Part shown: positions 28,144 through 46,585 of the stretch, piece after piece
Position numbering within the stretch: the first letter of the stretch is position 1
Layout: the number at the start of each line of letters is the position of its first letter
DNA from: an uncultured Acidobacteriota bacterium
Lineage (GTDB): Bacteria > Acidobacteriota > Vicinamibacteria > Vicinamibacterales > 2-12-FULL-66-21
Direction: 5' to 3'
DNA: 64,000 bases
Assembly (NCBI GenBank): GCA_963787175.1
Contig: CAWBCA010000012.1
Coordinates: 5,033 to 69,032, forward strand
Notes under the pieces: generated by a model
Told to the model about the DNA's origin: nothing
Databases searched by the model: none
The model's input: only the letters and a program-made list of their open reading frames with translations
Translations under genes and position numbers: made by a program

Positions 28144-28170
28144 GTCCGGCACATGCGAAAGGAGATCGCG

Positions 28171-29860: not shown

Positions 29861-30367
29861 TCATGCACAGACCGTTGCCTCGCCGACGGCGCGGGTCGTC
29901 TTAACTTCTCGAGTCTCGCGGACTGCCAGCACCGGACAATGCGCGCTGCGAATGACGCGCTCTGCCACGCTGCCGAGCACCAGGTGCGGCACCCCGCTTC
30001 GGCCGTGCGTGCTCATCACAATCAGATCCGCGAGGCACTCCCCTGCTGACGTCACGATGCCCTCAGCGGGTGCCCCGTAGGCTACGCCGGTCGTCACGGA
30101 GAGACCCCGCTCGATGAGGCGGTCAGCGATCTTCGAGAGCCGGGCCAGGCTGTCGGACGTCAGTTTCTCCCGCACGGCGCGCGCACTCGGGATGTACCAC
30201 TCCCACCCGCCTCCGGCCAGGAACGGCTCTTCGACAACGTGCAGCAGGTGAAGCGTGGCGCCGAAGGGGCTCGCGAGCGCTGCTGCATAGTCGACCGCAC
30301 GGTCGGAGGCCGGGCTGAAGTCCGTGGGAACCACAATCGTCTGAATCCGGGGGATCACGGCTGCCTC
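29861..30367 (-). CDS. universal stress protein (UspA family)
   Basis: GTG at 30367 sits 5 nt after AAGGAGG. IQTIVVPTDFSPASDRAVDYA...LHLLHVVE...DLIVMSTHGRSGVPHLVLGSVAERVIRSAHCPVLAV. Confidence 0.85.
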   Translation of the reverse strand, partial: EAAVIPRIQTIVVPTDFSPASDRAVDYAAALASPFGATLHLLHVVEEPFLAGGGWEWYIPSARAVREKLTSDSLARLSKIADRLIERGLSVTTGVAYGAPAEGIVTSAGECLADLIVMSTHGRSGVPHLVLGSVAERVIRSAHCPVLAVRETREVKTTRAVGEATVCA

Positions 30368-30436
30368 CTTTTCCGTCGAGTTCACGATGGTCAGGCGCGC
30401 TGTACGACGCGAGCTTGTCATGCGATAAACGAGGCT

Positions 30437-30451
30437 GCAATTCGTAAGCCT
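30437..30451 (-). promoter_or_regulatory. candidate sigma-54 promoter (AGGCTT-N5-TTGCA)
   Basis: Plus-strand gcaattcgtaagcct, ~75 nt upstream of usp GTG 30367. GG/GC spacing is correct, the -24 box is weak, and the -12 box is perfect. Confidence 0.4.
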
Positions 30452-30602
30452 CACTGGTCGTCCCGCTGCCAGAGCGATCGCGTGCCGGCGCGGCAGAATC
30501 ACGAGAATTTTTCCTCACGGGGGGCGAAATTCTACCCAAGGCTGCTGTCGCTCGGCTGCCCGGAAGGCACGCGTTCTCGTGCACGAGGGCAGACTTCGGG
30601 TA

Positions 30603-30618
30603 TGGCAATGACGTTGCT
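30603..30618 (+). promoter_or_regulatory. candidate sigma-54 promoter (TGGCAA-N5-TTGCT)
   Basis: tggcaatgacgttgct has one mismatch to TGGCAC-N5-TTGCW. It lies ~75 nt upstream of ppsA ATG 30693. Confidence 0.65.
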
Positions 30619-30692
30619 GTCGTCGATCAACGGTGCTGCACTCGCCTGCCCGCGCCGGGCACAGCGATTAGGCGATCAGACGAGGAACTGCC

Positions 30693-33117
30693 ATGACCAA
30701 TCCAGCCGCAACCCCCACCTACGTCCTGGACTTCTCCGATATCACGCTTCAGGACGTCGGCCGCGTCGGAGGCAAGAACGCCTCGCTGGGTGAGATGTTC
30801 AGAACGCTGAGGCCGGCTGGCGTGGGCGTGCTCGACGGATTCGCGACGACGGCGGACGCCTACTGGCGGCTGCTCGGCACCGGCGACCTGAAGGCCACGC
30901 TTCGAACGGCGTTCGCGTCTCTCGATCCCGAGGATCTCGCGCAACTGGCGGTCTGCGGACACGCTGCACGCACGGCCGTTCTCGAAGCGGCGCTGCCTGA
31001 CGAGTTGCGCGCCGCAATCCTTGCGGCCTACGACAGGCTGTGCGCCCGGCTCGGACGTGAGCCGGAGATGGCGGTCCGTTCCTCGGCGACGGCGGAAGAC
31101 CTCCCGGAGGCGTCGTTCGCGGGCGCTGGCGAAACGTTCCTCAACGTACGGGGACGGGAGGCGCTGCTGAGGGCGGTGCAGGCCTGCTGCTCGGCTCTCT
31201 TCACCGATCGTGCGATCAGCTACCGGGCGCGCCTCGGCTACGACCAGCTCTCCGTCGCCCTCTCGGTCGGTGTGCTGCCCATGGTCCGGTCCGACCGGGC
31301 CAGCTCTGGCGTGATCTTCACGCTCGACCCCGAATCAGGATTCCGTGATGTCGTCACGGTCTCCGGCGCGTACGGGCTCGGCGAGTTCGTCGTCCAGGGA
31401 GTCGTCACGCCCGACGAATGGACGGTCTTCAAGCCAACCCTTGCGACAGGCCATCAAGCCATCGTCGGGCGCCGGCTGGGCACGAAAGAGGTGCGCCTCG
31501 TGTATGCCGACGGCAGCAAGGGGACCAGGAGCGAACCCGTGCCTCCAGAGGACCGCGCGCGTTATTGTCTGTCGGACAACGAGGTGCTGAAACTCGCCCG
31601 ATGGGCGGCCCTTATCGAAGACCATTACTCCACGGCTGCAGGTCATCCACAACCCATGGACATCGAGTGGGCGAAGGATGGTGTCACCGGCGACCTGGTG
31701 ATCGTCCAGGCCCGGCCGGAGACGGTGCACTCCCAGAAACCACGCGGAGGCGCCGCCGAGGCGTACCGGCTGACGGCAGCGCCGGGCACACCGCGCGTCA
31801 CGGGGCAGGCCGTTGGCGAGAAGATCGCGGTCGGCCGCGTGCGTGTCGTCCGAAGTATCGATTCGCTCGGGCGCGTCCAGCCGGGCGAGGTCCTCGTGGC
31901 GGAGATGACCGATCCCGACTGGGAACCCGTCATGCGCCGCGTCGCCGCCATTGTCACCGACAAGGGGGGTCGCACGGCACATGCGGCGATTGTGTCCAGG
32001 GAGTTCGGCCTCGCCTGCATCGTCGGCACAGGCGTCGGCACAAGCCGGCTTCGCGATGGCGACGAGGTGACCGTCTCCTGCGCCGAAGGGGCCGAGGGCC
32101 ACGTCTACGCCGGCGCCCTGCCGTACGAGATCGATCGCATCGACGCCGCGGCTGTCGCGCAGACGCGCACGAAGGTCATGCTGATCGTCGGAGACCCGAG
32201 CCGTGCGTTCGCCCTCGCCAGCGTCCCTAACGCCGGCGTGGGGCTGGCCCGGACCGAGTTCATCGTCACGAACCACATCGGCATCCATCCAATGGCCTTG
32301 GCGCGTTACCCGGCCTTGTCCGACCCGGCCGCCGTGGCCGCGATTGCCAAGAAAATCGGGGCCGAGGACGCCAGAGCCTTTTTCGTGCAGCGGTTCAGCG
32401 AGGGGGTCGCACGCATCGCGGCGGCGTTCTATCCCAAGCCGGTGATCGTTCGCACGAGCGACTTCAAGAACCAACGAATACGTTCGGCTCCTCGGTGGTT
32501 GCGAGTTCGAGCCTGACGAGGAAAACCCGATGATCGGCTTCCGGGGCGCGTCCCGGTACGTACCGACACACGGTACGCCGATGGGTTTGCACTCGAATGC
32601 GCGGCTCTGCGGCGGGTCCGGCTCGACATGGGACTCACCAACGTCAAGGTCATGATCCCGTTCTGCCGGACGGTCGCAGAGGGGCGTCGCGTGTTGGGAG
32701 ACGATGGCTGCCAATGGACTGCGCCAGGGGGAACAGGGCCTCGAGATCTACGCGATGTGCGAGGTGCCCTCGAACGCGGTGCTGGCGGAACAGTTCCTAG
32801 AGGTGTTCGACGGCTTCTCGATCGGATCGAACGATCTGACGCAGCTGACGCTGGGGCTCGATCGCGATTCCGGCACCGTGGCGCATCTGTTCGACGAGCG
32901 GGACGACGCGGTGCGCTGGCTGATTGCGCGGGCCATCCACGCCGCTCACAAGCTTGGAAAGACGATCGGGATTTGCGGGCAGGCACCGTCCGACTACCCG
33001 GAGTTCGCGGTGTGGCTGACGCAGCAAGGTATCGACTCCATCTCCCTCAGCCCCGACGTGGCCATCGCGACGGCCACACGCGTCGCGGCTGCCGAACGCG
33101 AGCTGGTGTCCCGATGA
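30693..33117 (+). pseudogene. ppsA: phosphoenolpyruvate synthase (pyruvate, water dikinase), three frame breaks in the last quarter as assembled
   Basis: VGGKNASLGEM, PMDIEWAKDG, TDKGGRTAHAAIVSREFG (phospho-His region) and ARTEFIV. After ..RTSDFK (~32469, extra a) the product continues as [30 protein letters not shown] shift at ~32565 gives [44 protein letters not shown] shift at ~32702 (extra c) gives [23 protein letters not shown]...GSNDLTQL... Confidence 0.9.
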
Positions 33118-33390
33118 TCCCGGCTTGCCGAACCGAGTGCCAGCTGTCCTCGCCGCCCGGCGTTCATGGTGCGCGCCCGGGGCATTTTGCCGACCAACAA
33201 TGCGACCTGAGTTCGACCGCCGCTCGGACCGCCCGTGCGGCGACGAACGTCCAGGTGATCGCCAATTTCCCACACGCACATGCCGTGAGGCACAATCAGG
33301 CTCCAGACCTGTCCTGCGCGTGGACTGGGCGACCGCAGAAAGGCCGTCCAGTTTCTGGCACCAGAACACAGCTGGGTTCGCGATCACACT

Positions 33391-34749
33391 ATGGCCAAAG
33401 CCACAATCCTCGTCGTTGATGATGAAGCGCTGATTCGGTGGTCTCTTGCGGAGCGCCTGAAGGCGGAAGGCTATGACGTGCTGGAGGCGGACACCGGGCG
33501 GGGCGCTCTGGAACGGCTTCCGGAGGGCGTCGACCTGGTCCTGCTCGACTATCGGCTCCCCGACACCGACGGCGTCACCATCCTGCGCAAGATGAAGGAG
33601 TTCGACCAGGACATCCTGGTCATTCTCCTGACCGCGTATGCCAGCGTGGAAACCGCCGTCGAGGCGATGAAGCTGGGCGCCTATCATTTCGCCAACAAGC
33701 CGTTCAACCTCGACGAGGTCGCGGCGACCGTCGAGCGGGCGCTGGAGACGACCCGGCTGCGCCGCGAGGTACGGCAACTCCGTACGAGTGCGGCGCGTCC
33801 CTACAGCCTCGACCGCATCGTCGGCGCGTCTCCGGCCATGACCACGCTGCGGCAACTCGTCGCCCGTGTCGCCAGCAGCCCGGCGTCGACAGTGCTGTTG
33901 ACTGGTGAGAGCGGAACCGGCAAGGACCTGGTCGCGAAGGTGATCCATTACGGCAGCGACCGGGCCGCCAGGGCGTTCATGAACATCACGTGCTCCGCGC
34001 TCCCCGAGCAGCTCCTGGAGAGCGAGCTGTTCGGGCACGAGCGTGGCGCCTTCACCGATGCACGGCTGCAGAAGAAGGGCCTGCTCGAAACGGCCAGCGG
34101 TGGCACCGTCTTCCTCGACGAGATCGGCGAAATGACCCCGGCCCTCCAGGCGAAGCTGCTGCGGTTTCTCGAGGAGAAAAGCTTCAAGCGGGTGGGCGGC
34201 GCCAGCGACATCCGCGTGGACGTGCGGGTGATCGCCGCGACCAATCGCGACCTTCAGGAAGCCGTCGCCAAGCACCAGTTCCGGGCCGATCTGTTCTACC
34301 GGCTCAACGTGCTCCCCCTGCCCCTGCCGCCCCTCCGTCAGCATCCAGAAGACATCCCCGCGCTGGTCGAGTTCTTCATCGATGGTTTCAATACGGAGTT
34401 CAGGAAGCGGGTGCTGGGCGCGACGCCGGCGGCCCACGCCGTGCTCCAGCGCTACGGATGGCCAGGTAACGTACGCGAGCTCCGCAACCTCGTCGAACGT
34501 GCCATGCTCCTATCTGATGCCGACCGGCTCGATGCGCGAGACTTCGCGTCGCTCAACACCACTACCGCCGCGGGCGACGGGTTCGAGCTACCCTCCACCG
34601 GCGTCGATCTCGAGAAGCTGGAGCGAAGTCTGGTCATTCAGGCGCTGCAACGCAGCGGGGGGAACCAGACTCGCGCTGGAGCGCTGCTCGGTCTGAACAG
34701 GGACCAGATTCGCTACCGGATAGAGAAGTTCTCCCTCAACACCGCCTGA
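33391..34749 (+). CDS. sigma-54-dependent response regulator (NtrC family: REC + AAA+ + Fis-type HTH)
   Basis: REC: [11 protein letters not shown]...[13 protein letters not shown]. Walker [15 protein letters not shown] loop (variant of GAFTGA). [18 protein letters not shown] tail [23 protein letters not shown]. Confidence 0.95.
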
Positions 34750-34937
34750 TTGCCCCTCAGCGGGAGCTGTGTCGGATCGGGCTTCTGACTGGCGGCCTTA
34801 ATGGTCCGCTTGTGCGCTGTCTTCGTTGCGGGTTGTTCTGCCCGCCGGCGCGACATTCGCGCTGCCGGTCACGGCGGTGCGCCCGAACAGAGAGCGTCGC
34901 GGCAGCCGAAAGAGGCCGTTCTGCAGAGCCGACGAGG

Positions 34938-35405
34938 TCAGGCGGCATCTGCCGCTGCGGGGTTCGCATGGACCGTCAGCACAGGACAGGGCGCGAGGCG
35001 CACGACCCGCTCGGCCACGCTGCCCAGGAGCACGCGATTCCAGCCACACCGGCCGTGCGTGCCACACACAATCAGGTCAACGCCATGAGCCTCCGCATAC
35101 TCGAGGATCTGTTCGCTGGGGTCGCCCCACGCGGTCGCCACGACAACGCGTAGATTGCGCCACTCTTCCAACGAGAGATAGTCCGTCAGCCGATCCTGTG
35201 CCTCAGCCTGCAGCCGTTCCACGGTCTCAATGAACTGCGCGGCCGGAACGTAGCCGGACCACGGCTCGCCCAGCGGCTCGGTCACCACGTGAAAGACATG
35301 CAGCGACGCGCCGAACGTGGTCGCCAGCGCTCGAGCGCGCTCCAATGCCGCACGAGCGGCCTCGCTGAAATCCATCGCCACGAGCACGGTTCTGAGAGCG
35401 ATCAT
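34938..35405 (-). CDS. universal stress protein
   Basis: MIALRTVLVAMDFSEAARAALE...LHVFHVV...DLIVCGTHGRCGWNRVLLGSVAERVVRLAPCPVLTV. Confidence 0.9.
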   Translation of the reverse strand: MIALRTVLVAMDFSEAARAALERARALATTFGASLHVFHVVTEPLGEPWSGYVPAAQFIETVERLQAEAQDRLTDYLSLEEWRNLRVVVATAWGDPSEQILEYAEAHGVDLIVCGTHGRCGWNRVLLGSVAERVVRLAPCPVLTVHANPAAADAA

Positions 35406-35475
35406 GACGTCGCCTCCTCTTGCCGGGCTGCTGCCTCAAGGATGTGGAGGCTGGCCGCCCGGTGCCTCAGCGATC

Positions 35476-35490
35476 GCAACGGCTGTACCA
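35476..35490 (-). promoter_or_regulatory. candidate sigma-54 promoter (TGGTAC-N5-TTGC)
   Basis: Plus-strand gcaacggctgtacca, ~70 nt upstream of usp ATG 35405. One mismatch in the -24 box. Confidence 0.45.
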
Positions 35491-35638
35491 GCGGAAACGG
35501 CCGGTCATTCAAGACAGGCGTAGCCGCCGTACCGAGAGTGCCCTCGAGCACCGCGAACTATTCCGCAGCACGCCGGAAGAATCACCTTCGGCAAGTTCCC
35601 TCACGAGCCTGATTTCCCAGCGTACGCGGTAGCGCGGA

Positions 35639-35654
35639 GGGCACGACTGTTGCC
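35639..35654 (+). promoter_or_regulatory. candidate sigma-54 promoter (GGGCAC-N5-TTGCC)
   Basis: gggcacgactgttgcc, ~150 nt upstream of the kinase ORF start 35806. Divergent from the 35476 motif. Confidence 0.5.
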
Positions 35655-35805
35655 ATCTCAGGCCTCGAGTGCCGCTGGTTCCTGGGAGCCACGCTGGAGG
35701 TTGCGATGATTGCGCTTACACAGATACCCCTCGCCCCCGGACTTCGGCAAACTGAGCGAGAGTTCGTGCACCCGGACACGGCAGTAGCCGCGGCGCACGT
35801 CTGAC

Positions 35806-37137
35806 ATGGAGCTCCTGCAACGACTTGGCGCGGCGCAGACTGCCGCGAAGCGATCCGCGGTCGGATTGACACCGCCACTGACGTCCACCTTCTGCCACAG
35901 CCGCGGACGTGATCTTCTCCTCGTCGCGGCGGTGCTGACGCTGCTGCTCTGGCTCGGCACGCCCCTGAGGACGCCCGGCTCGCACGTGGCGCCGTTCGCC
36001 GGTTTGTGGGCGGCCTCCGGGCTGCTTGGTGTCTGGAGCTGGAGGTACACGCGGCGCGCCCTCGAGCCGCCGCACGCAGCCAGAGGGGTGGCGGACTCGC
36101 TGGAAACGCTTCAGGAGGTCCGGTCCGCGCTGGATCAGGCCGCCATCGTCGCCACCACAGATCACCGCGGAACCATCATGTCGGTCAACGATCGGTTCTG
36201 CGCGATATCCGGTTACTCGCGCGAGGAGCTGGTCGGGCAAAACCACCGCATCATCAACTCCGGCTATCACCCATCGACGTTCTTTGCCGACCTATGGAGG
36301 ACGATTGGGCGTGGAAGCGTCTGGCGCGGGGAGGTGCGCAACCGCGCGAAGGACGGGTCTCTCTACTGGGTGGACACGACGATCGTGCCGTTCTTGGATC
36401 AGGGCGGGAAACCGCGCCAGTATCTCGCCATTCACAGCGACATTACCGTCCGCAAGGATGCTGAGGCGCAGCTTCGCAGCCAGGCGGCCCTTGCGCACCT
36501 TGGCCAACTCGCCGCCGTGGTCGCACACGAAGTGCGCAACCCCTTGGCAGGCCTCCGCGCGTCTCTGCAGGTGCTGGATGGCCGGTGCTCCAACGAGCTT
36601 TCAGCGCGACAGGTCATCGGGGCCATGATCCAGCGCATTGATGAACTGAACGAGAAACTCGGCGATCTGTTGCTCTATGCGCAGCCGAGGCCCGCGCGAT
36701 TGCAGGCTGTGGATGTGCGATCGATCGCGCTGGACGCGGCCGCCGCCGCTCGCGCAGCCATGGGTGAGGCTCACCCGCCCGTCCCCGTGCTCGGCCAACG
36801 GACCGTCGCTCGTGCCGATCCCGACATGCTCCGCGCGGCCGTGCTGAACTTGACGCTGAATGCATGTCAGGCCGCCGCACGCGCCGGGGTCGAGCTCCAG
36901 GTCGAGGGAGACGAGCGTGTCTGCCGCATCTCCGTGCGTGACCGCGGGCCTGGCATCCCGGCCGACCTGCGGGATCGGTTGTTCGAGCCGTTCTTCACCA
37001 CTCGCCCGGGCGGCACGGGTTTAGGACTTGTTGTCGCCAGGCGTCTGCTCGACCTCCAGGGAGGCGCGGTGGCATTGAAAGACCATCCGGAGGGGGGCAC
37101 GGTGGCCGCGGTCACCCTGCCGGCAGCACCAGAATAG
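35806..37137 (+). CDS. membrane-anchored PAS-domain sensor histidine kinase
   Basis: Two N-terminal hydrophobic segments. PAS (TDHRGTIMSVNDRFCAISGYSREELVGQNH...). H-box VAHEVRNPLAGL. N/G boxes (RDRGPGIP, GGTGLGL). Confidence 0.85.
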   Translation: MELLQRLGAAQTAAKRSAVGLTPPLTSTFCHSRGRDLLLVAAVLTLLLWLGTPLRTPGSHVAPFAGLWAASGLLGVWSWRYTRRALEPPHAARGVADSLETLQEVRSALDQAAIVATTDHRGTIMSVNDRFCAISGYSREELVGQNHRIINSGYHPSTFFADLWRTIGRGSVWRGEVRNRAKDGSLYWVDTTIVPFLDQGGKPRQYLAIHSDITVRKDAEAQLRSQAALAHLGQLAAVVAHEVRNPLAGLRASLQVLDGRCSNELSARQVIGAMIQRIDELNEKLGDLLLYAQPRPARLQAVDVRSIALDAAAAARAAMGEAHPPVPVLGQRTVARADPDMLRAAVLNLTLNACQAAARAGVELQVEGDERVCRISVRDRGPGIPADLRDRLFEPFFTTRPGGTGLGLVVARRLLDLQGGAVALKDHPEGGTVAAVTLPAAPE

Positions 37138-37213: not shown

Positions 37214-38653
37214 TCAGGCTGGCAGCTGCACGGTCACCGTCGTGCCGCCACCCGGCGGGCACGACACGCTGATCGTGCCGCGATGCGCCTCGACGAGGCG
37301 CTTGGCGGTCGGAAGCCCCAGGCCGGAGCCGCGAGACTTGGTGGTGAAGAAGGGCAGAAAGATTTTGTCACGCATCTCGGCGGGTATGCCTGGGCCGCGA
37401 TCGATGACGGCGATCTGGCACGTGCCGTCCACCGCCCCGACTTCTACCTGCAGCGTGCCGGCGTCGTTCATGGCATGCGCGCCATTCACGATGAGGTTCT
37501 CGAACACGATGCGGAGCAGGTCAGCGTCGGCCAGGATCGGCGGGTGCGAGCCACGGACCTCCACATGCAAGCCTGCGAGGGCGGGATTCCGGCTGAGCAG
37601 GTCGGCCGTGAGCCTGACGAGTGTCTCAATCTCCACAGGAGCCGACTTCGGCCGGGGCGGACGGGCAAAGAGCAGCAGGTCCTGCATCAATCCGTTCAGC
37701 CCGTCTATGCGCGCCACAATCTCCTGAACGATGGCGGTGTCACTGCTCTCCTTGGGCAGCCGGGCACCAACGACCTGGACCGCACCCCGCACGCCTGCGA
37801 GAGGATTCCTTACCTCGTGAGCGATGACGGCGGCCATCTCGCCCAGCCTGGCCAGGGCCGCCTGCTCCCGGAGCTGCGCCTCGAGGCGCACGCGCGTCGT
37901 CAGGTCGTGGAGAATCCCCGAAAACCGACGTTCCTGCCCGATCTTCATTTCCCCAACGGCGAGGTGGGCGGGAAACGTCGTCCCGTCCTTTCGTAAGCCG
38001 GTGACCTCGCGGCCGATCCCGATGATCCGTGGGACGTCCGTAGACAGATAGCGGGCGATGTAGCTGTCGTGCTCCTCGCGGTGTGGGGAGGGCATCAGGA
38101 GGCTCACGTTACGGCCGATTACCTCCGACGCCTCATATCCGAACATCCGCCCCGCACTCGGGTTGAACTCTTCGATCCGACCCTGCGCATCGATGACGAT
38201 GATGCCGTCGACCGCCGAGTCGAATACGGCGTGCCAGCGCGCCTCGCTGACCCGGCGCGCAGCCTCCGCCTGTTTCTGTTGCGTGATGTCATGCGCAGTC
38301 GCCGAGGCGCCAATCACACGCCCGCTCGCGTCACATACGGGCGCAACCGTCAGCGACATCTCGATCAGTTCGCCGTCCTTCCTGCGGCGCAGCGTGTCGT
38401 AGGGACCGACGCGCTCTCCCGCCGCAACGCGCCGGATCACGCCCGGAAGCTCGTCGGCGCGATCAGCGGGAATGAGGATTGAGACTGATCGTCCGGTGAT
38501 GTCAGGCCCGGAATAGCCGTAAAGGCGTTCGGCACTCCTGTTCCAGGTCAGAACGACACCGTCCAGATCCGTGCCGATGACGGCGTCGGCGGACGAATCG
38601 AACAAGGCCCCGAGAAAGGCCGCCGCGTCGTCGTTGGGCGTAAAGGCGGACAT
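37214..38653 (-). CDS. soluble double-PAS sensor histidine kinase; second PAS is FixL-like (heme-PAS)
   Basis: PAS1: AVIGTDLDGVVLTWNRSAERLYGY. PAS2: IIVIDAQGRIEEFNPSAGRMFGYEASEVIGRNVSLLMPSPHREEHDSYIARYLSTDVPRIIGIGREVTGLRKDGTTFPAHLAVGEM. H-box IAHEVRNPLAGV. ATP-lid IDRGPGIP..GSGLGL. Confidence 0.9.
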   Translation of the reverse strand: MSAFTPNDDAAAFLGALFDSSADAVIGTDLDGVVLTWNRSAERLYGYSGPDITGRSVSILIPADRADELPGVIRRVAAGERVGPYDTLRRRKDGELIEMSLTVAPVCDASGRVIGASATAHDITQQKQAEAARRVSEARWHAVFDSAVDGIIVIDAQGRIEEFNPSAGRMFGYEASEVIGRNVSLLMPSPHREEHDSYIARYLSTDVPRIIGIGREVTGLRKDGTTFPAHLAVGEMKIGQERRFSGILHDLTTRVRLEAQLREQAALARLGEMAAVIAHEVRNPLAGVRGAVQVVGARLPKESSDTAIVQEIVARIDGLNGLMQDLLLFARPPRPKSAPVEIETLVRLTADLLSRNPALAGLHVEVRGSHPPILADADLLRIVFENLIVNGAHAMNDAGTLQVEVGAVDGTCQIAVIDRGPGIPAEMRDKIFLPFFTTKSRGSGLGLPTAKRLVEAHRGTISVSCPPGGGTTVTVQLPA

Positions 38654-38820: not shown

Positions 38821-40332
38821 TCATCTTGCGAGCGTCCGAGCGGTCCCGCCAGTGACTAGCTTCATCCGTTGGCTCATGTGCGCCTGCAAATAGGCGCCAG
38901 CGTTCCGCAGCACCTGCTCTACCGACGGCGAGGGGTCAAGACCGTGCCACTCACCTCCCGATACGCCCTGCCTGTGCTGCATCCGGACGACGTCGGCGTC
39001 GGCATCCGACGCGCGTGCTCTCGCTGATTGACGCGTGTGAGCAATGTCGGTTCGGGTGCCTCCAGCCACAGAGAGATGAACGGGACGCGTGCGAAGGCCG
39101 CGACCTGCGCAATGGTCTGCCGGTCTGCTTCCCGGCCGAACACCGCGTCCACGATGACGCTGTGACCTGCTCTCAGGATCTCGGCGGCGCGGGCGGCCGA
39201 TGTGGTGTAGACCCGCTCGGACAGGTGGGGCGCTTACCCTTGGTCCGAGTCGCTGGCGTGGTGACACCCCACAGAGGCGCTTGCGGATCTCATCGCTGCG
39301 GAGCACTACGGCGCCAGGCACGGCGCCAACATACGGGGCCAGGCCGGCCGCCACCGTGGACTTCCCTGAGCCAGACAGCCCACCAATGGCGACAAGGCAG
39401 GGGCGCGGAGGGTGCAGCATCTCTTCCGACATTGCGAGGTATTGGCGCGCCAGCTGCTCTGCTTCTCGTTGCGCACCGCTCTCTGTCTGAAGCCGCGCGG
39501 AGGTCGCGCTCGTCTTCGCCCGGACGGCAGCCCGGCACGACAGAAACAATGGGAGTAGCGCGACGCCACCCGGGTCCGCAGCCGCGTCGTAGTACCCGTT
39601 CCATACCGCGTTGGCGTGCCGGGGTAAGCCGCGACGCCAGAGGTCCATGAGCAGGAAGGCGAGGTCGTAGTAGGTGTCGGTGCAGGAGATCTCGTCGTTG
39701 AACTCCACTCCGTCGAACAGCGTGGGCTGACCCTCCAGCAGGACGATGTTGCGCAGGTGCAGATCTCCGTGACATTCCCGCACGTAGCCCGACTGCCGAC
39801 GGCTGTCCAACAACCCTGCCACCCGCTCGAGCTCGCACTGAGCTGACTCGGTCAGACGCCGACACGCAGCCGGCTCGAGGCAAGCCGTGCCGAATTCCTT
39901 GAACCCCGCCACATTGCCATCGATGACCCAGCCCATTCCGGCCTTGCCGCCATGATCCGATCTTGGGTCCGCCGACTTGTGAAATGCGGCGATGGCCTCG
40001 GCCAGCGGCGCCATCAGCGCGAGGTCGAGCTGTCCGGCTGCGGCACGACGGTCGAAGAGCGCGTCCTGAGGAAAGCGATTCATCTCGACCACCCAGTCGA
40101 GGGGTGCGCCTCGGCCCCCGAAGGCCAGCGAGCCGTCCGGTTCCCGGGTGACCGGCACGACGGCCCGGTACAGCGTTGGCGCCGTACGTCGGTTCAGGCG
40201 AAGCTCCGCTTCGCAGAAGGCCTGACGCTGCATCGACGTAGAGAAGTCGACGTAGTCGAATCGCACGGCGTGTTTTGATCCGTTCGACCTGCTGCTGGCG
40301 TAGGTGGTCGGCGAGGCCAGAAACTCGATCAC
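38821..40332 (-). pseudogene. bifunctional aminoglycoside-phosphotransferase-fold / P-loop kinase protein (Rv2004c-like), two compensating frame breaks as assembled
   Basis: APH fold: ECHGDLHLRNIVL..FDGVEFND. P-loop GGLSGSGKST. Between ~39230 and ~39015 the conserved text runs in another frame (..LSERVYTTSAARAAEILRAGHSVIVDAVFGREADRQTIAQVAAFARVPFISLWLEAP..). It then returns to the first frame (DASDADADVVRMQ..). Confidence 0.8.
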
Positions 40333-40573: not shown

Positions 40574-41521
40574 TCACCCTGCATGACTGATCACTTGTTC
40601 ACGCCTCGCCGGCTGTGGGCGCACCACATGGCCGGGGGGGAGTGCCAGCACCAGATTCCTGGAGAGACACAGGAAACGATAGGTGACGGAGCCCATTCGC
40701 GGACCGATGAGAGGTGATCCATGAAGACCGACCAACGTCAGTCCCGCCTGGCGGTCGTGGGCAATCTTGGCGAGCTCCTCCGCGGGATCGCCATACGCCA
40801 CAAGCGCTTCGGAGTGGAGGCGCGGTGGAATCGTTGCCACCAACTCACTCAGCCGGTCTTCTGCGATGGCACGCTGGTCGGCCTCGAGCGTGATGACGTG
40901 CCGCCGCCCGGCCATGGGCGTCTTGATCGGTTCGATCACGTATGCCAGAAGCATCGGCACGTTCAGGGCCTCGGCGACCGCACGCGCGACCTGTGTCTGA
41001 TGCAGCGAGTCGGCCGACAGATCAACGGGCACCAACACCCGGCGTACCAGATGCTGTGCCTGCTCGACGGACAGCGGCCGCGGCACCACTGGCGGGGTGA
41101 TGAGCACCGGCTGCGATGTCTCGCGAAGGACGCGCTCCGTCGTGGAGCCAAAGAACAGCTTCCGCATCCCTGTGAGCCCCTGTGTGCTGATCACAATGAG
41201 GCTACATGAGCGCTCCTCGCAGACGCGCAGGATCTCGACTGCGGGCTTCCCAACTGCCACCTCGTATTCGAACGCGGCCGGGGGGCTCGAGTCATGAGCA
41301 CCGGCCCTGCGGGCAAAGTCCGCCAGTTCCTGGGTGCAGGCGCCCGGATCCCAGACGATGCCGGTGCCGAGGTCGACCGCATTTGCCAGGAGCGGGTGTG
41401 CGACCGTCAGCACCAGCACACGCGCGCCGAACCGGGTACCGATGGCGGCCGCATAGCGGAGGGCGCCAGCGGACGCTTCCGAGAAGTCCACCGGGCACAG
41501 GATCAAAGGACTGTCGTTCAT
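40574..41521 (-). CDS. tandem (double-domain) universal stress protein
   Basis: MNDSPLILCPVDFSEAS...SLIVISTQGLTGMRKLFFGSTTERVLRETSQPVLI, then a second domain RVLVPVDLSADS...LTLVGLHGSPLIGPRMGSVTYRFLCLSRNLVLAL. Start is M at 41521 or 41533. Confidence 0.85.
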   Translation of the reverse strand: MNDSPLILCPVDFSEASAGALRYAAAIGTRFGARVLVLTVAHPLLANAVDLGTGIVWDPGACTQELADFARRAGAHDSSPPAAFEYEVAVGKPAVEILRVCEERSCSLIVISTQGLTGMRKLFFGSTTERVLRETSQPVLITPPVVPRPLSVEQAQHLVRRVLVPVDLSADSLHQTQVARAVAEALNVPMLLAYVIEPIKTPMAGRRHVITLEADQRAIAEDRLSELVATIPPRLHSEALVAYGDPAEELAKIAHDRQAGLTLVGLHGSPLIGPRMGSVTYRFLCLSRNLVLALPPGHVVRPQPARREQVISHAG

Positions 41522-41605
41522 GATGGCCTCCATCTCAGACACGTTGGCGCACGCTGCTCCCGCAACCCCGCCGGAGTCACGCCGGTTCGGGGGCACCAGA
41601 GTCGG

Positions 41606-42085
41606 TCAGGCGGCACGGTGAGTCTGTGGGGTCGATGCCTCGTCGGGGCGGATCGTCAGCACGGGACACGGTGCAGCGCGGACAACGCGCTCGGCTACAC
41701 TCCCCATCAACAGCCGTGCGATGGCCCGGCGACCGTGCGTGCCCATGACCACCAGATCGATGTTCTTCTGCTCCGCCAGATAGTCCAGGATCTCCTCGGC
41801 CGGCGCGCCTGTGCGGCACACGAGCACGACGTTGTACCGTTCCCGCTCCTCGTCCGTTAACGACGTCTCGAGCAGCTTCAGGGCATCGCGCTCCAGTTGG
41901 GCAAACAGGTCCGGCGGAGGCGCATAGAACTCCATGTACCCGCCGCGCACGAAGGGATTCTCGGTGGCGTGCAGGAGGTGGAGCGAGGCGCCGAACGCGT
42001 CCGCCAGGCCGCAGGCGTAGCGGAGCGCCTGCTTCGATGCCGCACTGAAATCGGTGGGGACGAGGATGTTCTTGATGCGAGTCAT
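41606..42085 (-). CDS. universal stress protein
   Basis: MTRIKNILVPTDFSAASKQALRYA...LHLLHATE...DLVVMGTHGRRAIARLLMGSVAERVVRAAPCPVLTI. Close paralogue of 44887..45366. Confidence 0.9.
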   Translation of the reverse strand: MTRIKNILVPTDFSAASKQALRYACGLADAFGASLHLLHATENPFVRGGYMEFYAPPPDLFAQLERDALKLLETSLTDEERERYNVVLVCRTGAPAEEILDYLAEQKNIDLVVMGTHGRRAIARLLMGSVAERVVRAAPCPVLTIRPDEASTPQTHRAA

Positions 42086-42210
42086 GGTCAGCTCCTGCCA
42101 ACGGTCTTGAACTAGCGTGGCGGCCCTCCGGGAGAGGACAAGCCGGCGGCGCTCCAGTCGCCCGTTGGCCCTTGTGGAATGTCGATGGAGGCGCGGCTGA
42201 CTCGACCCAG

Positions 42211-42226
42211 CGCAACCTTAGTGCCA
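42211..42226 (-). promoter_or_regulatory. candidate sigma-54 promoter (TGGCAC-N5-TTGCG, perfect core)
   Basis: Plus-strand cgcaaccttagtgcca is the reverse complement of TGGCACtaaggTTGCG. It lies ~130 nt upstream of usp ATG 42085, in the right orientation for the usp / tandem-usp / APH-P-loop gene string. Confidence 0.7.
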
Positions 42227-42428
42227 TTGCGAAACGAGTGCGCTGCTGGGGATCCGCGCGCTCGGCGTCCGGAGAACCCGGGAAGAAATTCGCATGCGCG
42301 AGGAAATTGTCGCGCTTGCTCCAGCGCAGCACGTCGGGCTTACCAGCGACGCCACCCTCAGTGACGCGCTATAGGAGTCCAAGCGCCTGCGGCATCAGGG
42401 TTGCTCGATAGCGTGTCGGAGCACGATC

Positions 42429-42650
42429 ATGACGATTCACGATCCGCATCTCGGCGATGCGAACGGGCCGCTCGAACAGAGACTGATCGAGGAATATCTC
42501 GCGGCGCGCGGCCACACGCGACATTCCCTTGTCACGCTGGCGGGTTCGCAGGCGGGATCGCTGCTCAGAGCAGCCTCTGAGTACGCAAGCCTGAGACTGG
42601 CTGAGATGGAGGCAAAAGCCCACTACGTCCACGAGATAGGTGGACGATAG
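42429..42650 (+). CDS. small hypothetical protein (73 aa)
   Basis: The ORF has balanced composition (MTIHDPHLGDANGPLEQRLIEEYLAARGH...) but no recognisable family or clear RBS. Confidence 0.3.
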   Translation: MTIHDPHLGDANGPLEQRLIEEYLAARGHTRHSLVTLAGSQAGSLLRAASEYASLRLAEMEAKAHYVHEIGGR

Positions 42651-42934
42651 GGACCGCGATGCGGTGCTGATCTCGACGTCAAGCCGCAGGCTGCGCCATC
42701 AACACAGGGCGATCTCCGGAGTGAGGTCCTCGTTGGAAAGGCGGCCTCGGAGATCACCCGCTACGCTGCCGATGTCAAGTCGATCTGATCATTCTTGGAT
42801 CGCACGGGCGCGGCACGGTTGGGCGGACGTTTCTCGGCAGCGTCGCCGATCGAGTACTCCGCCAGGCGGCCTGCGCCGTGCTGGTCGTGAAACCTCAAGC
42901 TCGTAGCGATGCGGTCGTCAGCGACGCAGCTTGA
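42651..42934 (+). pseudogene. C-terminal half of a universal stress protein, 5'-truncated and frameshifted
   Basis: ..GDLRSEVLVGKAASEITRYAADVK | (shift at ~42780) DLIILGSHGRGTVGRTFLGSVADRVLRQAACAVLVVKPQA...*. No N-terminal USP half upstream. Confidence 0.6.
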
Positions 42935-43182
42935 CGATCACGAGGAGTTCGGCTGAATCTCACACTCGGTACAGCCGGAGTTACGTGACAGGGAACCTGC
43001 CTGTTGGGATGAGCCCTGGCCGTATCGCGTGGCCCACTCGGCGTAGAAGCCCGACTCCCGTCGTGGGCTCTTCAGCCAGCGCCTGGACATCGCTCACCTC
43101 GGGCCGTCACGCCGACGCACTGGCGGCCACACAAAAATACGCTGTTCCACCCTGCGGTTCCAGACGCATCGGCGGTCCTCGG

Positions 43183-43740
43183 TCAAGACACGGCCGGACC
43201 GAAGAACACACCGAACAGCACCGCGAAGCCGACGGCGAACGTCCAGCCGAGAAGGCAGACGGCCACGGTCCGGCCCGTTGTGCGGTAGTCCAGGGCCTGA
43301 CGCACGGCGACAACCATGTCAGCAATCATCCAGACGCTGGAAATCACAAGCACTGGAACGGCCAGCCCGGGGATGACGCCCACAATCCGGAACACCCCAG
43401 GTGCCGAGGCAAATCCCGTGGTGCGCATCAATTCTCCCAGGTCCGCTTGCGTGCGAACGTCAGGCAGCAGCCTGACACCAATTTCGAACGTCACCAGTGA
43501 CCATGCCACCCACGATAGCAGCGCAACGACGCTGAAGAATCCGACGGCGACCAGCCCGGCGGCGCCGAATCCGCGCGCCCCCACGCCTGCCGCCGCACTG
43601 GAGAGCAGGACCACCGCGCATGCCTGAGCGGTTGCGCCACGATCGGCCTCGACCTCCTCGAAAATGGCAGGACGCAACGCTGCGGCCCCTGCTGCCCGAC
43701 GCAGGAAGGACGATCCCGCGACCGCTGCTGACATACTCAC
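43183..43740 (-). CDS. Yip1-family membrane protein
   Basis: 185 aa. IFEEVEADRGATAQA followed by five hydrophobic helices, the typical YIP1 layout. Confidence 0.75.
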   Translation of the reverse strand: MSMSAAVAGSSFLRRAAGAAALRPAIFEEVEADRGATAQACAVVLLSSAAAGVGARGFGAAGLVAVGFFSVVALLSWVAWSLVTFEIGVRLLPDVRTQADLGELMRTTGFASAPGVFRIVGVIPGLAVPVLVISSVWMIADMVVAVRQALDYRTTGRTVAVCLLGWTFAVGFAVLFGVFFGPAVS

Positions 43741-43968
43741 TTGAGTCTCCTGTGTCGGATATTCCTCATCGCCGCGCCAGGCGACCCGACGTGCTTACGG
43801 CTGCATCAGCTGTACCGGTGCGAAGCCGGACGATCGCGTGCGAAGTGCGCGGCCCACGCAGGCGCGAACGCGCCCACATCAAATGATTTCGGTCAGTTCG
43901 CTCACCGAGGCGGCCGGCGCCTAAGGTGGCGTCGGCCAGTGCGACTCCCCATCGTTCGCCGGACCGAG

Positions 43969-44580
43969 CTACCGGCCTCGTACTGGCGTGACGGGATGAT
44001 TCTCGAAGTGATACACCGCGTGGACCGCAACGCTCGTCATCACGAGGCGCCGACGGTCTCGGAACGCCACCATCGCCTGCACCACAGGACGAATCGCCAG
44101 ATGTGGGTTGATGAAGACGCTCAGCCCTCCGCCAGCGAGCACCGTGGGATCGTTGAAGGTCATGCCCACCTGCGATATCCGCTGCGTCACTCGTTGCCTG
44201 TAGAAATCCGGCATGACGCCGTCGTCCGGCCCGAACGACGCACGATAGACACCGACGCCAGCTTGCACGAATGGATCGATGTTGCGTCGCCCGAATAAGC
44301 GCCTCCGGACCTGGAGTGCCCCACTGAACCCGGACGCGCCATGATCAAACGATGCCCACGCGCCGCTCCCCTCGATGGCAAGCGCCGGGGTGATTTCCCA
44401 GCCGGCGGTTCCGCCGAGCATCGAGCCTGTGGACGAGGCGGTGACTGCCGTGCCGGCAAATCCGCTCAACGTCGTTGCGTGGTGCCAGTCGTCCACGCGC
44501 GGGGCGACCTGGGCCGAGGCTGATGCGGCGACGGTGAGGGATGCGACGCTGACGAGTAGAACACGATGAATTGTACGCAT
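43969..44580 (-). CDS. outer-membrane beta-barrel protein (OmpW/porin-family-like)
   Basis: Signal peptide MRTIHRVLLVSVASLTVAASASAQ. Alternating hydrophobic pattern. Aromatic-rich C-terminal strands (VAVHAVYHF). Confidence 0.7.
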   Translation of the reverse strand: MRTIHRVLLVSVASLTVAASASAQVAPRVDDWHHATTLSGFAGTAVTASSTGSMLGGTAGWEITPALAIEGSGAWASFDHGASGFSGALQVRRRLFGRRNIDPFVQAGVGVYRASFGPDDGVMPDFYRQRVTQRISQVGMTFNDPTVLAGGGLSVFINPHLAIRPVVQAMVAFRDRRRLVMTSVAVHAVYHFENHPVTPVRGR

Positions 44581-44886
44581 TGATCACGCTCCTGCGATCG
44601 ACTACGCAACCCACATACCTTCGGAGAACCAGCGCTCGTGCGGGTCTGGTGGGAGATCCACGGGCGGGCTTGGGGATTCCTCCGCACACCCACGAAGTAT
44701 TCCGTGTTTGCCAACGCTCCAGGAGTGGACGGATCGAACTCCGGCCGAGCGCGAAATCCCCCGAGCCGCTGATCTTCTCGAGACCGCGTGAGGGAGCGTG
44801 CCGCGCGATCGGGGATGGTGAGGGCGCGGCAAAAGCGTGGGCGGGACGGCCCAGTACAGAGCCGTCCCGATACCCGCCAATCGAGG

Positions 44887-45366
44887 TCAGGCGGCGCGAG
44901 TGACGTCGTCGGACGCCAGCGTTGACGGCCGGAGGTCAGCACGGGGCACGGCGCGGCCCGTATGACCTTGTCTGCCACGCTGCCAAGCATCAGGCGTGCG
45001 ACCCCCCCGCGACCGTGTGTCGCCATCACGACCAGGCTCGATCTCCGGGTGCTCGTGAAGATAACGCAGGATCTCCTGGGCAGGGACGCCGGCCGCGCGC
45101 ACGAGCACCGCGTGGTACCGCACCTTTTCCGCCTCTGTCAGTGACTCGTCCAGATTTCTCTGGACGTCCTGGTCGATCTGATCGAAGAACTGCTGTGGAG
45201 GGACGTAGAACTCAAGGTAACCGCCCGGCATATTGGGATTCTCAGCGGCATGCAGCACGTGCAGCGAGGCGTCGAATCGGTCCGCCAGCCTGCAGGCGTA
45301 TCGCAGCGCCTCTTTGGAGGCATCACTGAAATCGATGGGCACCAGAATAGTGGTGATCGGAGTCAT
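44887..45366 (-). pseudogene. universal stress protein, two compensating frame breaks as assembled
   Basis: MTPITTILVPIDFSDASKEALRYA..LHVLHAAE... After ..YLHEHPEI (~45036) the conserved text LVVMATHGRGGVARLMLGSVADKVIRAAPCPVLT is in another frame. The frame returns at ~44932 (RPSTLASDDVTRAA*). Confidence 0.8.
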
Positions 45367-45399
45367 GACGACGTTCCGTTCCTGGATGTTGTCCCTTGC

Positions 45400-46510
45400 C
45401 TACGACACCTGCGTGGCGGCCGTGGCATCGACGCCGCCGACCAGAGGGAGCCCTGCGGGATAGATCGCGACCTTCAGCACGCCGGCATCCTGCCGGCTGA
45501 AGAGATCGAAGGCGATCGGCAGTTGTTCCAGGGTGAAGTCGTGTGTCACGAGAGACGTGAGGTCCAGGCGATCGTGGATCACCATCGCCATCAACCGCCG
45601 CATCCGTTCCTTGCCGCCGGGGCAGAGCGTGGTAACGATCCGTTGGTCGCCAAGGCCGGCGTGCAGCGCCTCATACGGCGCGGTCAGCTTGCCCGAGTAG
45701 ACACCGAGGCTCGACAGCGTGCCGCCCGCGCGCGTGGAGCGGAGCGCGGCTTCGAAGGTCTCCTGCCGGCCGAGCGCCTCAATCGCGACGTCCACACCGC
45801 GGCCCTCGGTGAGCCGCTTGATCTCCGCGACCACGTCCTGGGCGGCGGGATCCAGCGTGACCGTCGCCCCAAACCGGCGCGACATGGCCCGGCGGTCGGG
45901 GAGCATGTCCACGCCAATGATCAGACCTGCGCCGCGCAGGCGCGCGCCCACGGTCGCGCACAGCCCGATCGGGCCCTGTGCGAACACCGCCACGCTGTCT
46001 CCGACCTTGACCTGACCGCTCTCGGCGCCCGAGATGCCCGTGGAGGCAATATCGGGCAGCATGAGTACCTGCTGGTCCGTCAGGCCGTCGGGCACGAGGG
46101 CGAGGTTGGCCCTCGCGTCCGGAATCAGCAGGTACTCTGCCCAGGCACCGTCGATGGTGTTGCCGAACCGCCAGCCGCCCATCGGACCACGACACTGCGA
46201 ATGCACGCCGTTCAGGCAATAGAAGCACTGACCACAGGGCGTAATGGCACCGACAATCACCCGCTGCCCGACGGCGTACTCGTCGTCGAGACCCTCGCCG
46301 AGCTCCGCGATGATGCCGACCGGCTCGTGCCCGAGTATCAGGCCCGGTCGGACCGGGATACTCCCCTTTGACGATATGCACGTCGGTTCCGCAGATGGTC
46401 GTGGCCGTCACGCGAATGACCGCCTGGCCAGCGCGCGGGTGTGGGCGCGGGACCTCCTCGACGCGTATATCGTTGACACCGTGGAACACGACCGCCTGCA
46501 TGGTTTCCAT
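45400..46510 (-). pseudogene. zinc-dependent alcohol dehydrogenase (MDR family), one frameshift as assembled
   Basis: METMQAVVFHGVNDIRVEEVPRPHP..ICGTDVHIVKGEYP | (extra base ~46356) VRPGLILGHEPVGIIAELG...CGQCFYCLNG..VFAQGPIGL... The usp at 45366 follows 33 nt downstream. Confidence 0.85.
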
Positions 46511-46570
46511 GTGATCCTCACTTCCTGTTCGGCGCGGCACGGCAGCCGCGAGCAGCCGGTTACAGCAACG

Positions 46571-46585
46571 GCAACGCCGATGCCA
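46571..46585 (-). promoter_or_regulatory. candidate sigma-54 promoter (TGGCAT-N5-TTGCC)
   Basis: Plus-strand gcaacgccgatgcca, ~60 nt upstream of adh ATG 46510. One mismatch to the consensus. Confidence 0.6.

Follow-up and report, generated by a model that had tools for sequence, protein, structure and literature searches.

The 64,000-nt stretch of DNA analysed here (contig CAWBCA010000012.1 of assembly GCA_963787175.1, positions 5,033 to 69,032; hereafter, the window) comes from an uncultured member of the Vicinamibacterales, phylum Acidobacteriota. At 29861-46585 it carries a block of genes for universal stress proteins (USPs), together with a sigma-54-dependent activator and two sensor histidine kinases, HK1 and HK2. 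A first-pass annotation made from the letters alone had read this block as a dormancy- or hypoxia-type gene set run by the activator and a FixL-like kinase instead of a DosR/FixJ-type regulator.

At a G+C content of 62-71% across the window, spurious frames dominate raw lists of open reading frames (ORFs). Gene models were drawn from codon-position G+C first, and then from Pfam/NCBIfam profile searches and tblastn against related loci; a strict filter on third-position G+C (GC3) dropped many genes, and a relaxed codon-position filter erred, for example by choosing the wrong strand at 15.2-16.1 kb. A search of one genome per species for the activator gave orthologues (64-76% identity) restricted to metagenome-assembled genomes (MAGs) of Acidobacteriota/Vicinamibacterales, at loci L001-L007; identity falls to 50% at the next match. 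The closest relative of the window is L081, a 39-kb metagenome contig reached by homology search with the aminoglycoside phosphotransferase-fold (APH) protein of the block.

Genes of the block and their counterparts in related genomes

The activator gene (33391-34749, +) encodes a protein of receiver (REC)-Sigma54_activat-HTH_8 architecture, in which Pfam matches Sigma54_activat over its full length (3e-67), Response_reg at residues 6-114 (6e-26) and HTH_8 (1e-11). The phospho-acceptor Asp of the receiver domain lies in the expected place, and the best NCBIfam match of the protein is AtoC, at 459 against a cut-off of 714. Both kinases were assigned by Pfam: HK1 (35806-37137, +) is a PAS-HisKA-HATPase protein and HK2 (37214-38653, -) a PAS-PAS-HisKA-HATPase protein. 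Profile searches of the window revealed no gene for a FixJ/NarL-type regulator and no globin-domain or REC-containing kinase.

HK2 is collinear with Bradyrhizobium japonicum FixL across PAS-A and the haem-binding PAS-B (E = 4e-42), and its residues 139-263 match the FixL haem domain with E = 1e-35. The equivalents of the haem-pocket residues His200, Arg206, Ile215, Arg220 and Leu236 are kept ('HREEH-DSYIAR-Y...IIGIGR-EVTG...FPAHL'). HK2 is a soluble kinase whose FixL-type haem-PAS domain should sense O2. Its transmitter is of another kind: the dimerization/phosphotransfer and catalytic (DHp-CA) region scores 125 bits against ZraS and at most 87 bits against FixL-core chimeras, AtoS ranks first in NCBIfam, and the FixL model reaches 251 against a cut-off of 850. 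The first-pass description of a FixL-like kinase holds as far as the haem-pocket residues, and the transmitter is not FixL-like; the transmitters of HK1 and HK2 both look ZraS/AtoS-like. A sigma-70-like promoter lies ahead of HK2 at 38719-38690.

The PAS domain of HK1 (residues 115-224) matches the MmoS structure 3EWK with E = 8e-44, and Aer and NifL were also matched. Because this is the PAS-A domain of MmoS, which binds FAD, HK1 is most likely a flavin (FAD-PAS) redox sensor. Its N-terminus is hydrophobic when read by eye and probably spans the membrane.

Every family call of the first-pass annotation, from the USPs, ppsA, the zinc alcohol dehydrogenase (Zn-ADH) and the APH/P-loop protein to the NtrC-type activator, the two PAS kinases and the flanking genes, is backed by profile searches. 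Its six USP genes resolve by Pfam and NCBIfam profiles into five genes and a remnant: four intact genes (one of them tandem), one that is frameshifted and one that has decayed. USP1 (29861-30358, -; Pfam Usp 1.4e-34) starts at a GTG at 30358, preceded by an AAGGAGG ribosome-binding site, and not at 30367 as had been proposed. Divergent from it lies ppsA (30693-33117, +; NF005057, 717 bits), which encodes a phosphoenolpyruvate (PEP) synthase/pyruvate, water dikinase and is interrupted by about three frameshifts within 230 nt (32470-32700). USP2 (34938-35405, -; Pfam Usp 2.6e-36) stands between the activator and HK1. Beyond HK2 follow a fusion of an APH fold with an AAA_33 P-loop kinase (38821-40332, -; Pfam) and a tandem, two-domain USP (40574-41521, -; Pfam Usp in two matched stretches, 3.5e-40), which lies 84 nt downstream of USP4 (41606-42085, -; Pfam Usp 4e-36) and whose L081 orthologue has 315 aa. 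The APH/P-loop protein has more than 7500 homologues under the source name 'aminoglycoside phosphotransferase family enzyme/predicted kinase'; in architecture and length it is like Rv2004c of Mycobacterium tuberculosis, to which it presumably corresponds. Read by eye, the C-terminal region of USP4 carries the ATP-binding motif G-2x-G-9x-G-S.

On the opposite strand, a 73-aa ORF (42429-42650, +) with a -24/-12 element of its own is likewise called in L081 and finds no match in Pfam or NCBIfam; it is followed by the decayed USP remnant (42651-42934, +), spread over two to three frames. A Yip1-like membrane protein gene (43183-43740, -), assigned through its L081 orthologue with a weak Pfam Yip1 match, has homologues that adjoin USP genes in L003 and L007, in the latter with a -24/-12 element. 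Between it and USP6 lies a gene for a beta-barrel outer-membrane protein (43969-44580, -), for which no counterpart is called at the same position in L081. USP6 (44887-45366, -) has a 1-nt frameshift near 45030 and the Zn-ADH gene (45400-46510, -) one near 46360; both are intact in L081.

This arrangement is conserved, as the first-pass annotation had suggested should be checked: synteny of activator, kinases and USP genes is kept in relatives, as are -24/-12 elements. In L081 the order is ADH, USP, Yip1, a 107-aa ORF, the 73-aa ORF, USP, tandem USP, APH, HK2, HK1, USP and activator, the same as in the window with a few extra genes. More distantly, L005 repeats the window's set of ppsA, tandem USP, USP, HK2, ADH, HK1 and activator. 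The activator adjoins USP genes and PAS kinases in every orthologous locus. USP genes lie within 5 kb of it in 6/7 orthologous loci, with those of the remaining locus, L005, at about 5.5 kb, and in 2/73 distant homologues (Fisher p = 6e-7); because of this linkage, the density of USP genes beside the activator is not a matter of chance.

Both sensor types recur with it. Haem-PAS kinases flank the activator in L003, L005 and L007, and FAD-PAS kinases, whose PAS domains are 64-66% identical to that of HK1, do so in L002, L005 and L006. In L003 a FixL-like kinase (8506-9921, +) lies directly upstream of the activator orthologue on the same strand and carries a tandem pair of haem-type PAS domains, which share 63% and 55% identity with HK2 PAS-B. 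The activator itself has been duplicated in places: L004 and L006 have two intact tandem copies, and the window retains a remnant of a second copy (49952-50221, +), in which an N-terminal 'ATILVAGDEAL' is joined directly to a C-terminal HTH and which looks like the product of an internal deletion. Dyad-like boxes lie at 49961-49992, just upstream in the region of this remnant.

Outside the phylum, a Myxococcota MAG (L008, 2651-5992) encodes an activator of 50% identity that shares the GAFTDA sequence discussed below and has its own -24/-12 element; four USP genes adjoin it, behind a -24/-12 element. The dyad of the Acidobacteriota loci was not detected at the L008 locus.

Predicted sigma-54 promoter elements and a shared upstream dyad

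We scanned the window for sigma-54 promoters with a weighted TGGCAC-N5-TTGCW pattern and compared the result with shuffles. Of the 24 best matches in the 64 kb, 12 are followed at 15-280 nt by the start of a gene in the same orientation, against an expectation of 2.3 (p = 7e-7); the count is 10/24 without two gene starts that were fixed post hoc. Good elements stand 24-152 nt upstream of ppsA, USP2, HK1, USP4, the 73-aa ORF, ADH and a DUF6064 gene beyond the block, and all seven are kept at orthologous positions in L081, three of them identically. This conservation adds only modest weight, because intergenic DNA is 84-90% identical overall; L081 is too close for strong footprinting, and the ppsA and ADH upstream regions of L005 are too diverged for an informative alignment. 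Across L002-L008, -24/-12 elements precede homologues of USP, ppsA, ADH, BON and Yip1 genes.

The ppsA element (TGGCAATGACGTTGCT, 30603-30618, +) lies 75 nt upstream of its gene, scores 19.5 of 21 and is identical in L081; ppsA of L005 has CGGCAAGAACCTTGCT. The elements of USP2 (TGGTACAGCCGTTGCG, 35475-35490, -; TGGTACAACCGTTGCG in L081) and HK1 (GGGCACGACTGTTGCC, 35639-35654, +; GGGCACGACTCTTGCG in L081) lie 70 and 152 nt upstream of their genes, respectively. A second score of 19.5 belongs to the USP4 element (TGGCACTAAGGTTGCG, 42211-42226, -), 126 nt upstream, which reads TGGCACTGAGGTTGCG in L081. The divergent 73-aa ORF has its element 24 nt upstream (CGGCATCAGGGTTGCT, 42390-42405, +), identical in L081. 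ADH and USP6 are preceded at 60 nt by TGGCATCGGCGTTGCC (46570-46585, -; TGGCATCCGCGTTGCC in L081), and the ADH gene of L005 likewise by a -24/-12 element. The DUF6064 element (TGGCATCTAGCCTGCT, 48522-48537, +) recurs unchanged in L081, in which DUF6064 and ADH are arranged divergently.

Weaker candidates extend this set. USP1 has a weak element (AGGCTTACGAATTGCA, 30436-30451, -) that forms a dyad-promoter pair, which brings predicted promoters to five USP-containing units and to a P-type ATPase gene in the left flank (TGGCCCCGCTTTTGCG, 14764-14779, -). We count the ATPase among the weaker regulon members, since the element upstream of it is less distinct. Similarly weak -24/-12-like sequences precede a BON protein gene (TGGTTCGCTTGTTGCT, 15102-15117, +) and an ORF at about 17222-17845 (AGGCGCATCGCTTGCA, 17172-17187, +); the latter has a hydrophobic, signal-peptide-like N-terminus by eye, and its start was chosen after the promoter had been seen. 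The BON homologue of L003 has -24/-12 elements 260-390 nt upstream and a dyad, CGTGGGAAATACCACG. Two further weak elements, at 26173-26188 (-) and 26359-26374 (+), face poorly defined genes. No -24/-12 promoter was found for the nearby CBS gene. Only two sigma-70-like sites occur in the block, neither ahead of a USP gene.

A de novo motif search was run on 17 promoters, seven of the window and ten of its relatives, taking the 185 nt ahead of each; it returned a 16-mer, CGTGAGGAAAAAyyCG, with a log-likelihood ratio of 172 against 136.8 +/- 1.2 for shuffled inputs. Most of its sites are found 60-125 nt upstream of the -24 element, and the best are near-palindromes, such as TGCGGGAAAATTCCCG. Cross-validation was run in both directions. 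With a matrix built from the relatives only, 5/7 of the best matches in the window stand beside -24/-12 elements: four lie 71-122 nt upstream (ppsA, ADH, USP4 and DUF6064) and the fifth abuts the ATPase element, and each of the other two is within 105 nt of a -24/-12-like match. Conversely, with a matrix built from the window only, the frequency of dyad-promoter pairs is 1.41 per 10 kb in orthologous loci and 0.21 in control high-GC loci. In the window itself such pairs number 18, whereas shuffles give 5.3 (maximum 11). The upstream regions have no exact 8-mers in common; they are enriched in the words GAAATT, GGAAAT, CCTCAC and GGAAGAAT, and single-word searches of the window are not above chance, so that the signal comes from clustering and the matrix only.

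Between the divergent USP1 and ppsA genes, the dyad CGTGAGGAAAAATTCT (30504-30519, -) is the second-best match of the relatives-only matrix; it lies 99 nt upstream of the ppsA -24 element, within a cluster of three GGAAGAAT-like boxes (30492-30536). Dyad-like boxes also stand 79-130 nt upstream of the USP2 -24/-12 element. The divergent promoters of USP4 and the 73-aa ORF have one dyad in common (CGCGAGGAAATTGTCG, 42297-42312, +). The ADH dyad (CGTGCGGAAGAACACG, 46656-46671, +), third best with the relatives-only matrix, is accompanied by a second box, GGAAGAATCC, at 46641, and that of DUF6064 is TGGGGGAAAAATCCCG (48400-48415, +). The best dyad of the window is TGCGGGAAAATTCCCG at 17116-17131 (+). 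At 26278-26293, the palindromic dyad CGCGGGGAATATTCCC is flanked by -24/-12-like elements on both strands.

Binding sites of other oxygen-linked regulators are missing from these promoters. They contain no FNR/Anr boxes and no DosR box (GGGAC-N4-GTCCC), the single match with one mismatch in the window lying inside a gene at 54092, below chance expectation. The NmpR box (GCGCA-N5-TGCGC) has 9 matches with at most one mismatch where 13 are expected, none positioned as an enhancer. The lack of DosR boxes at the promoters and of a NarL/FixJ-type gene in the window bears out the first-pass proposal that local control is not of the DosR/FixJ type.

A candidate sigma-54-dependent low-oxygen regulon

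Taken together, we consider it probable that Vicinamibacterales-type Acidobacteriota have a conserved sigma-54-dependent stress/low-oxygen regulon, of which this block is the core. The best-supported part is that a sigma-54/activator regulon covers these genes; O2 as the main signal is less certain. From the domain architectures, the haem-pocket residues, the positions and conservation of promoters and dyads, and the synteny, we infer the following mechanism. HK2, responding to O2 through haem, and HK1, responding to redox state through flavin, would both phosphorylate one activator, the product of 33391-34749. By analogy with FixL, HK2 would be active as a deoxy-haem kinase, making low O2 the 'on' condition, so that falling O2 would lead to phosphorylation of the activator. 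The phosphorylated activator may then oligomerise on the 16-bp dyads (core GGGAA-N2-TTCCC), 60-125 bp upstream of the -24/-12 promoters, and remodel the sigma-54 holoenzyme at about 7-12 promoters.

Seven transcription units would be well supported: ppsA; USP2; HK1, which would provide feedback; USP4 with the tandem USP, possibly extending into the APH/P-loop gene and HK2; the 73-aa ORF with the USP remnant; ADH with USP6; and DUF6064. Support is weaker for five more: USP1, the P-type ATPase, BON and two functionally uncharacterised genes. The predicted output comprises ATP-binding-type USPs, the products of ppsA and ADH, the APH/P-loop protein, a Ca/Mn-type ATPase and envelope proteins (BON, DUF6064, Yip1), which might support survival at low respiratory activity. 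With its nucleotide-binding USPs, enzymes of gluconeogenesis and fermentation, ion pumping and envelope proteins, it would resemble DosR/Lxa-type programmes. We regard as evenly poised the fuller proposal that haem-PAS and FAD-PAS sensors on NtrB/AtoS-type transmitters converge on one activator, so that a tightly-off sigma-54 switch with its own enhancer code, conserved across the Vicinamibacterales, runs a DosR-like, USP-rich programme.

Several observations weigh against a regulon of this kind. The sigma-54 interaction loop of the activator reads GAFTDA and not the canonical GAFTGA; the variant occurs in 24/73 homologues, most orthologues among them. Neither the window nor L001-L008 contains an RpoN-box ORF. 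Upstream of the intact activator gene there is no canonical -24/-12 element: a perfect TGGCAC at 33357-33362 (+), 29 nt upstream of the start, is without GC at the -12 spacing. The L001 orthologue has both a canonical element (TGGCACTCTTGCTGCA) and a dyad upstream, and the missing -12 in the window could be an indel error or lost autoregulation. Several of the predicted regulon genes are frameshifted in this assembly, and the first box of the USP4 dyad is poorly conserved in L081. The promoters entered into the motif search were hand-picked, hence some circularity, which the cross-validation in both directions mitigates. Finally, -24/-12-like matches are no more numerous in the window than in shuffles, and only their placement stands out; the first-pass proposal of sigma-54 control is upheld by elements rightly placed and oriented before USP, ppsA, ADH, kinase, ATPase and BON genes, but not by their total number.

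This last point would be expected if the -24/-12 and dyad matches were products of chance or composition and the USP cluster were under sigma-70 and a regulator of FNR/CRP or NarL type encoded outside the window. Counts of GGAAGAAT-like boxes, too, are not above shuffles, AT-richer intergenic DNA favours motif words, and a DosR/FixJ-, FNR/CRP- or NarL-type regulator may be encoded elsewhere in the genome. We nevertheless hold this explanation to be very improbable, given the promoter placement statistics, the conservation of elements in L081 and in more distant loci, a motif cross-validated both ways, promoters free of FNR and DosR boxes, and two sigma-70-like sites of which neither precedes a USP gene. 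The promoters and dyad might instead be real and served by another enhancer-binding protein, with the adjacent activator running a subset such as ppsA or its own kinases. Acidobacteriota have many paralogues (relatives of the activator occur in all 600 stretches examined), L004 and L006 carry tandem copies and the window a second-copy remnant, and we infer binding of the dyad by the adjacent activator from co-location only, which counts against our reading as well. Yet dyad-promoter pairs are seven times denser in loci chosen solely for an activator orthologue, the USP linkage is specific to the orthologue group, and the L001 activator gene itself has a dyad and a -24/-12 element; a different activator thus strikes us as quite improbable.

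The nature of the signal leaves somewhat more room. The case for O2/NO induction is drawn from the sensor domains only, and the regulon and its sigma-54 control could be real while the signal is chiefly energy or redox starvation, NO/CO or stationary phase, with the sensors reporting respiratory state. FixL-type haem binds NO and CO too. HK1 is of the flavin redox type, norCBQD is 5 kb distant, many stresses are answered by USPs, BON proteins and ppsA, and NtrY-type haem-PAS kinases have been described as redox sensors (PMC7240162). We judge this unlikely, however, because HK2 keeps the Arg206 and Arg220 equivalents that couple O2 binding to kinase inhibition and because the gene content parallels that of hypoxia regulons (DosR, Lxa, Nmp).

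A sigma-54-dependent regulon responding to low oxygen would have relatives among known systems. Closest in logic is NmpRSTU of Myxococcus xanthus, in which the globin-coupled haem kinase NmpU acts through the hybrid kinase NmpS on the NtrC-like NmpR in an inverting phosphorelay, and NmpR uses paired dyad enhancers upstream of -24/-12 promoters (PMC11841059). Expression of the CBS protein gene mxan_4236 is raised by hypoxia in an NmpR-dependent manner, and the Nmp regulon also has one USP, a P-type ATPase/cbb3 operon and hemN (PMC11841059). Here, too, a haem O2 sensor would act through an NtrC-like sigma-54 activator on genes for USPs and a P-type ATPase, with a CBS gene nearby. In contrast to NmpRSTU, the window has a FixL-type haem-PAS kinase and an FAD-PAS kinase that apparently act directly, without a phosphorelay, and the NmpR site GCGCA-N5-TGCGC is absent from its promoters; whereas Nmp is centred on the cbb3 oxidase and hemN, the window, from a different phylum, is USP-rich with ppsA, ADH and an Rv2004c-like protein.

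In gene content the closest systems are the M. tuberculosis DosR regulon and the lxa locus of Burkholderia, which have NarL-type and Anr-type regulators, respectively. The window shares with the DosRST (DevRS) dormancy regulon and Streptomyces OsdKR single and tandem USPs, a type-IIA ATPase (ctpF), an APH/P-loop fusion (Rv2004c), a CBS pair and a PNPOx-fold protein, as well as a haem-based kinase input; this repertoire is present at domain level, with the equivalence to Rv2004c presumed from architecture and length. The Dos kinases are actinobacterial and bind haem in GAF domains, whereas the window's kinase would do so in a PAS domain, and the NarL/LuxR-type Dos regulator acts at sigma-70 promoters through GGGAC-N4-GTCCC, whereas the regulator here is NtrC-type, without that box. 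Rv2004c has phosphotransferase activity (PMC8701281). Burkholderia cenocepacia depends for its anoxic persistence on the lxa locus, a low-oxygen survival cluster in which six USPs are encoded alongside a Zn-ADH, a cation ATPase and two-component systems (PMC3721108); this locus and the Anr-controlled USPs of Pseudomonas aeruginosa have an FNR/Anr-type TGA-N6-TCA motif, unlike the window promoters.

Among sensor systems, FixL-FixJ shares with HK2 its collinear sensor region, the pocket residues and the same predicted deoxy-active logic, but here the partner is an NtrC-type activator and not FixJ, the transmitter is ZraS/AtoS-like, and the targets are stress/dormancy genes instead of the fixK/nif/fix cascade of FixL-FixJ(-FixK). 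In Brucella, the haem-PAS kinase NtrY has the NtrC-family regulator NtrX as its partner (PMC7240162). The NtrYX systems of Brucella and Rhodobacter resemble the present one in joining a haem-PAS kinase and an NtrC-family regulator in an O2/redox response; they differ in the periplasmic/HAMP architecture of NtrY and in targeting denitrification and envelope genes. NtrX is generally thought to work without sigma-54. The closest named sequence families of the activator and both kinase cores are Escherichia coli AtoSC and ZraSR, and for AtoC, too, the site reported is an inverted repeat centred on A/T; identity with either system was rejected, as matches are below equivalog cut-offs, there are no ato or zra targets, and the sensor domains differ. 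A 2025 survey found USPs (COG0589) enriched in predicted sigma-54 regulons of Planctomycetia (PMC12316311).

In view of NmpRSTU (PMC11841059) and NtrYX (PMC7240162), the first-pass statement that such wiring had not been described was too strong, because the Myxococcus system already links a haem O2 sensor via a sigma-54 activator to USP, CBS and ATPase genes. Since an oxygen-responsive sigma-54 activator regulon has been shown experimentally there, the present finding is incremental. In the literature searched, we met no account of a USP-rich island in Acidobacteriota whose sigma-54 activator is fed by FixL-type and FAD-PAS kinases. If the proposal is true, Acidobacteriota would have their first defined low-oxygen regulon, and a dormancy-type gene set would have a third, independent regulatory solution, after NarL-type DosR and FNR/Anr. 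The set of USP, ATPase, Rv2004c-like, ADH and PEP-dikinase genes recurs across phyla under NarL-type DosR, FNR/Anr and sigma-54 activators, and this recurrence under different regulators argues that it is a functional module for survival. In soil, Acidobacteriota, the Vicinamibacterales included, rank with the most abundant bacteria, and few of them are cultured. For their survival under fluctuating oxygen the locus offers a testable regulatory model, with two sensors, one activator, a predicted enhancer motif and about a dozen predicted sigma-54 promoters, which could be used to predict the full regulon in genomes of the order and to read metatranscriptomes.

Flanking genes and sequence integrity

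To the left of the block, profile searches place a type-IIA (SERCA/PMR1/CtpF-like) P-type ATPase gene (11801-14703, -) with a frameshift near 13402, followed by genes for a three-domain BON protein (15378-16037, +), a PNPOx-fold protein (16295-16747) and a VIT protein (18205-18759), and by norCBQD (19394-24498). Nearer the block lie genes for a Tll0287-like (haem-PAS-like) protein (26877-27593) and a Flavodoxin_5 protein (27925-28731), with a near-perfect palindrome, GGGGAATATTCCCC, upstream of them at 26280-26293. Both could be further regulon members; the gene models there are unclear. To the right, a truncated DUF6064 gene (48570-48887, +) keeps about 100 codons, corresponding to model positions 2-97 of 210, a CBS protein gene (49403-49855) is frameshifted, and a GNAT/ADP-forming acyl-CoA synthetase gene (50230-52907) is in three pieces.

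The frameshifts of the window are single-base indels without accompanying nonsense mutations. They are probably assembly indel errors of long-read sequence rather than real decay, because the genes split in L081 are DUF6064, CBS and the activator, a set that differs from the window's; the 'contig_N' name of L081 suggests a long-read assembler. The internally deleted second activator, the truncated DUF6064/BON fusion and the USP remnant are genuine rearrangements. At 48570-49285 (+), a 99-aa copy of the C-terminal part of the BON protein from 15378-16037 comes after the truncated DUF6064, in the likeness of a deletion or rearrangement junction. BACON-domain ORFs at 46901-48320 (-) separate the ADH promoter from the DUF6064 promoter; in L081 the two lie within one divergent intergenic region of 456 nt, which means that either the lineage of the window gained an insertion or L081 underwent a loss.

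Scans of the window with Rfam and for tRNAs gave no matches. A fragment of a Ser/Thr protein kinase catalytic domain (...DFGLAK) appears at 16861-17463 (+) in an otherwise non-coding-looking ORF, and an ISL3-family transposase gene (57325-58782, +; DDE_Tnp_ISL3, HTH, zinc-ribbon) lies about 8 kb downstream of the block.

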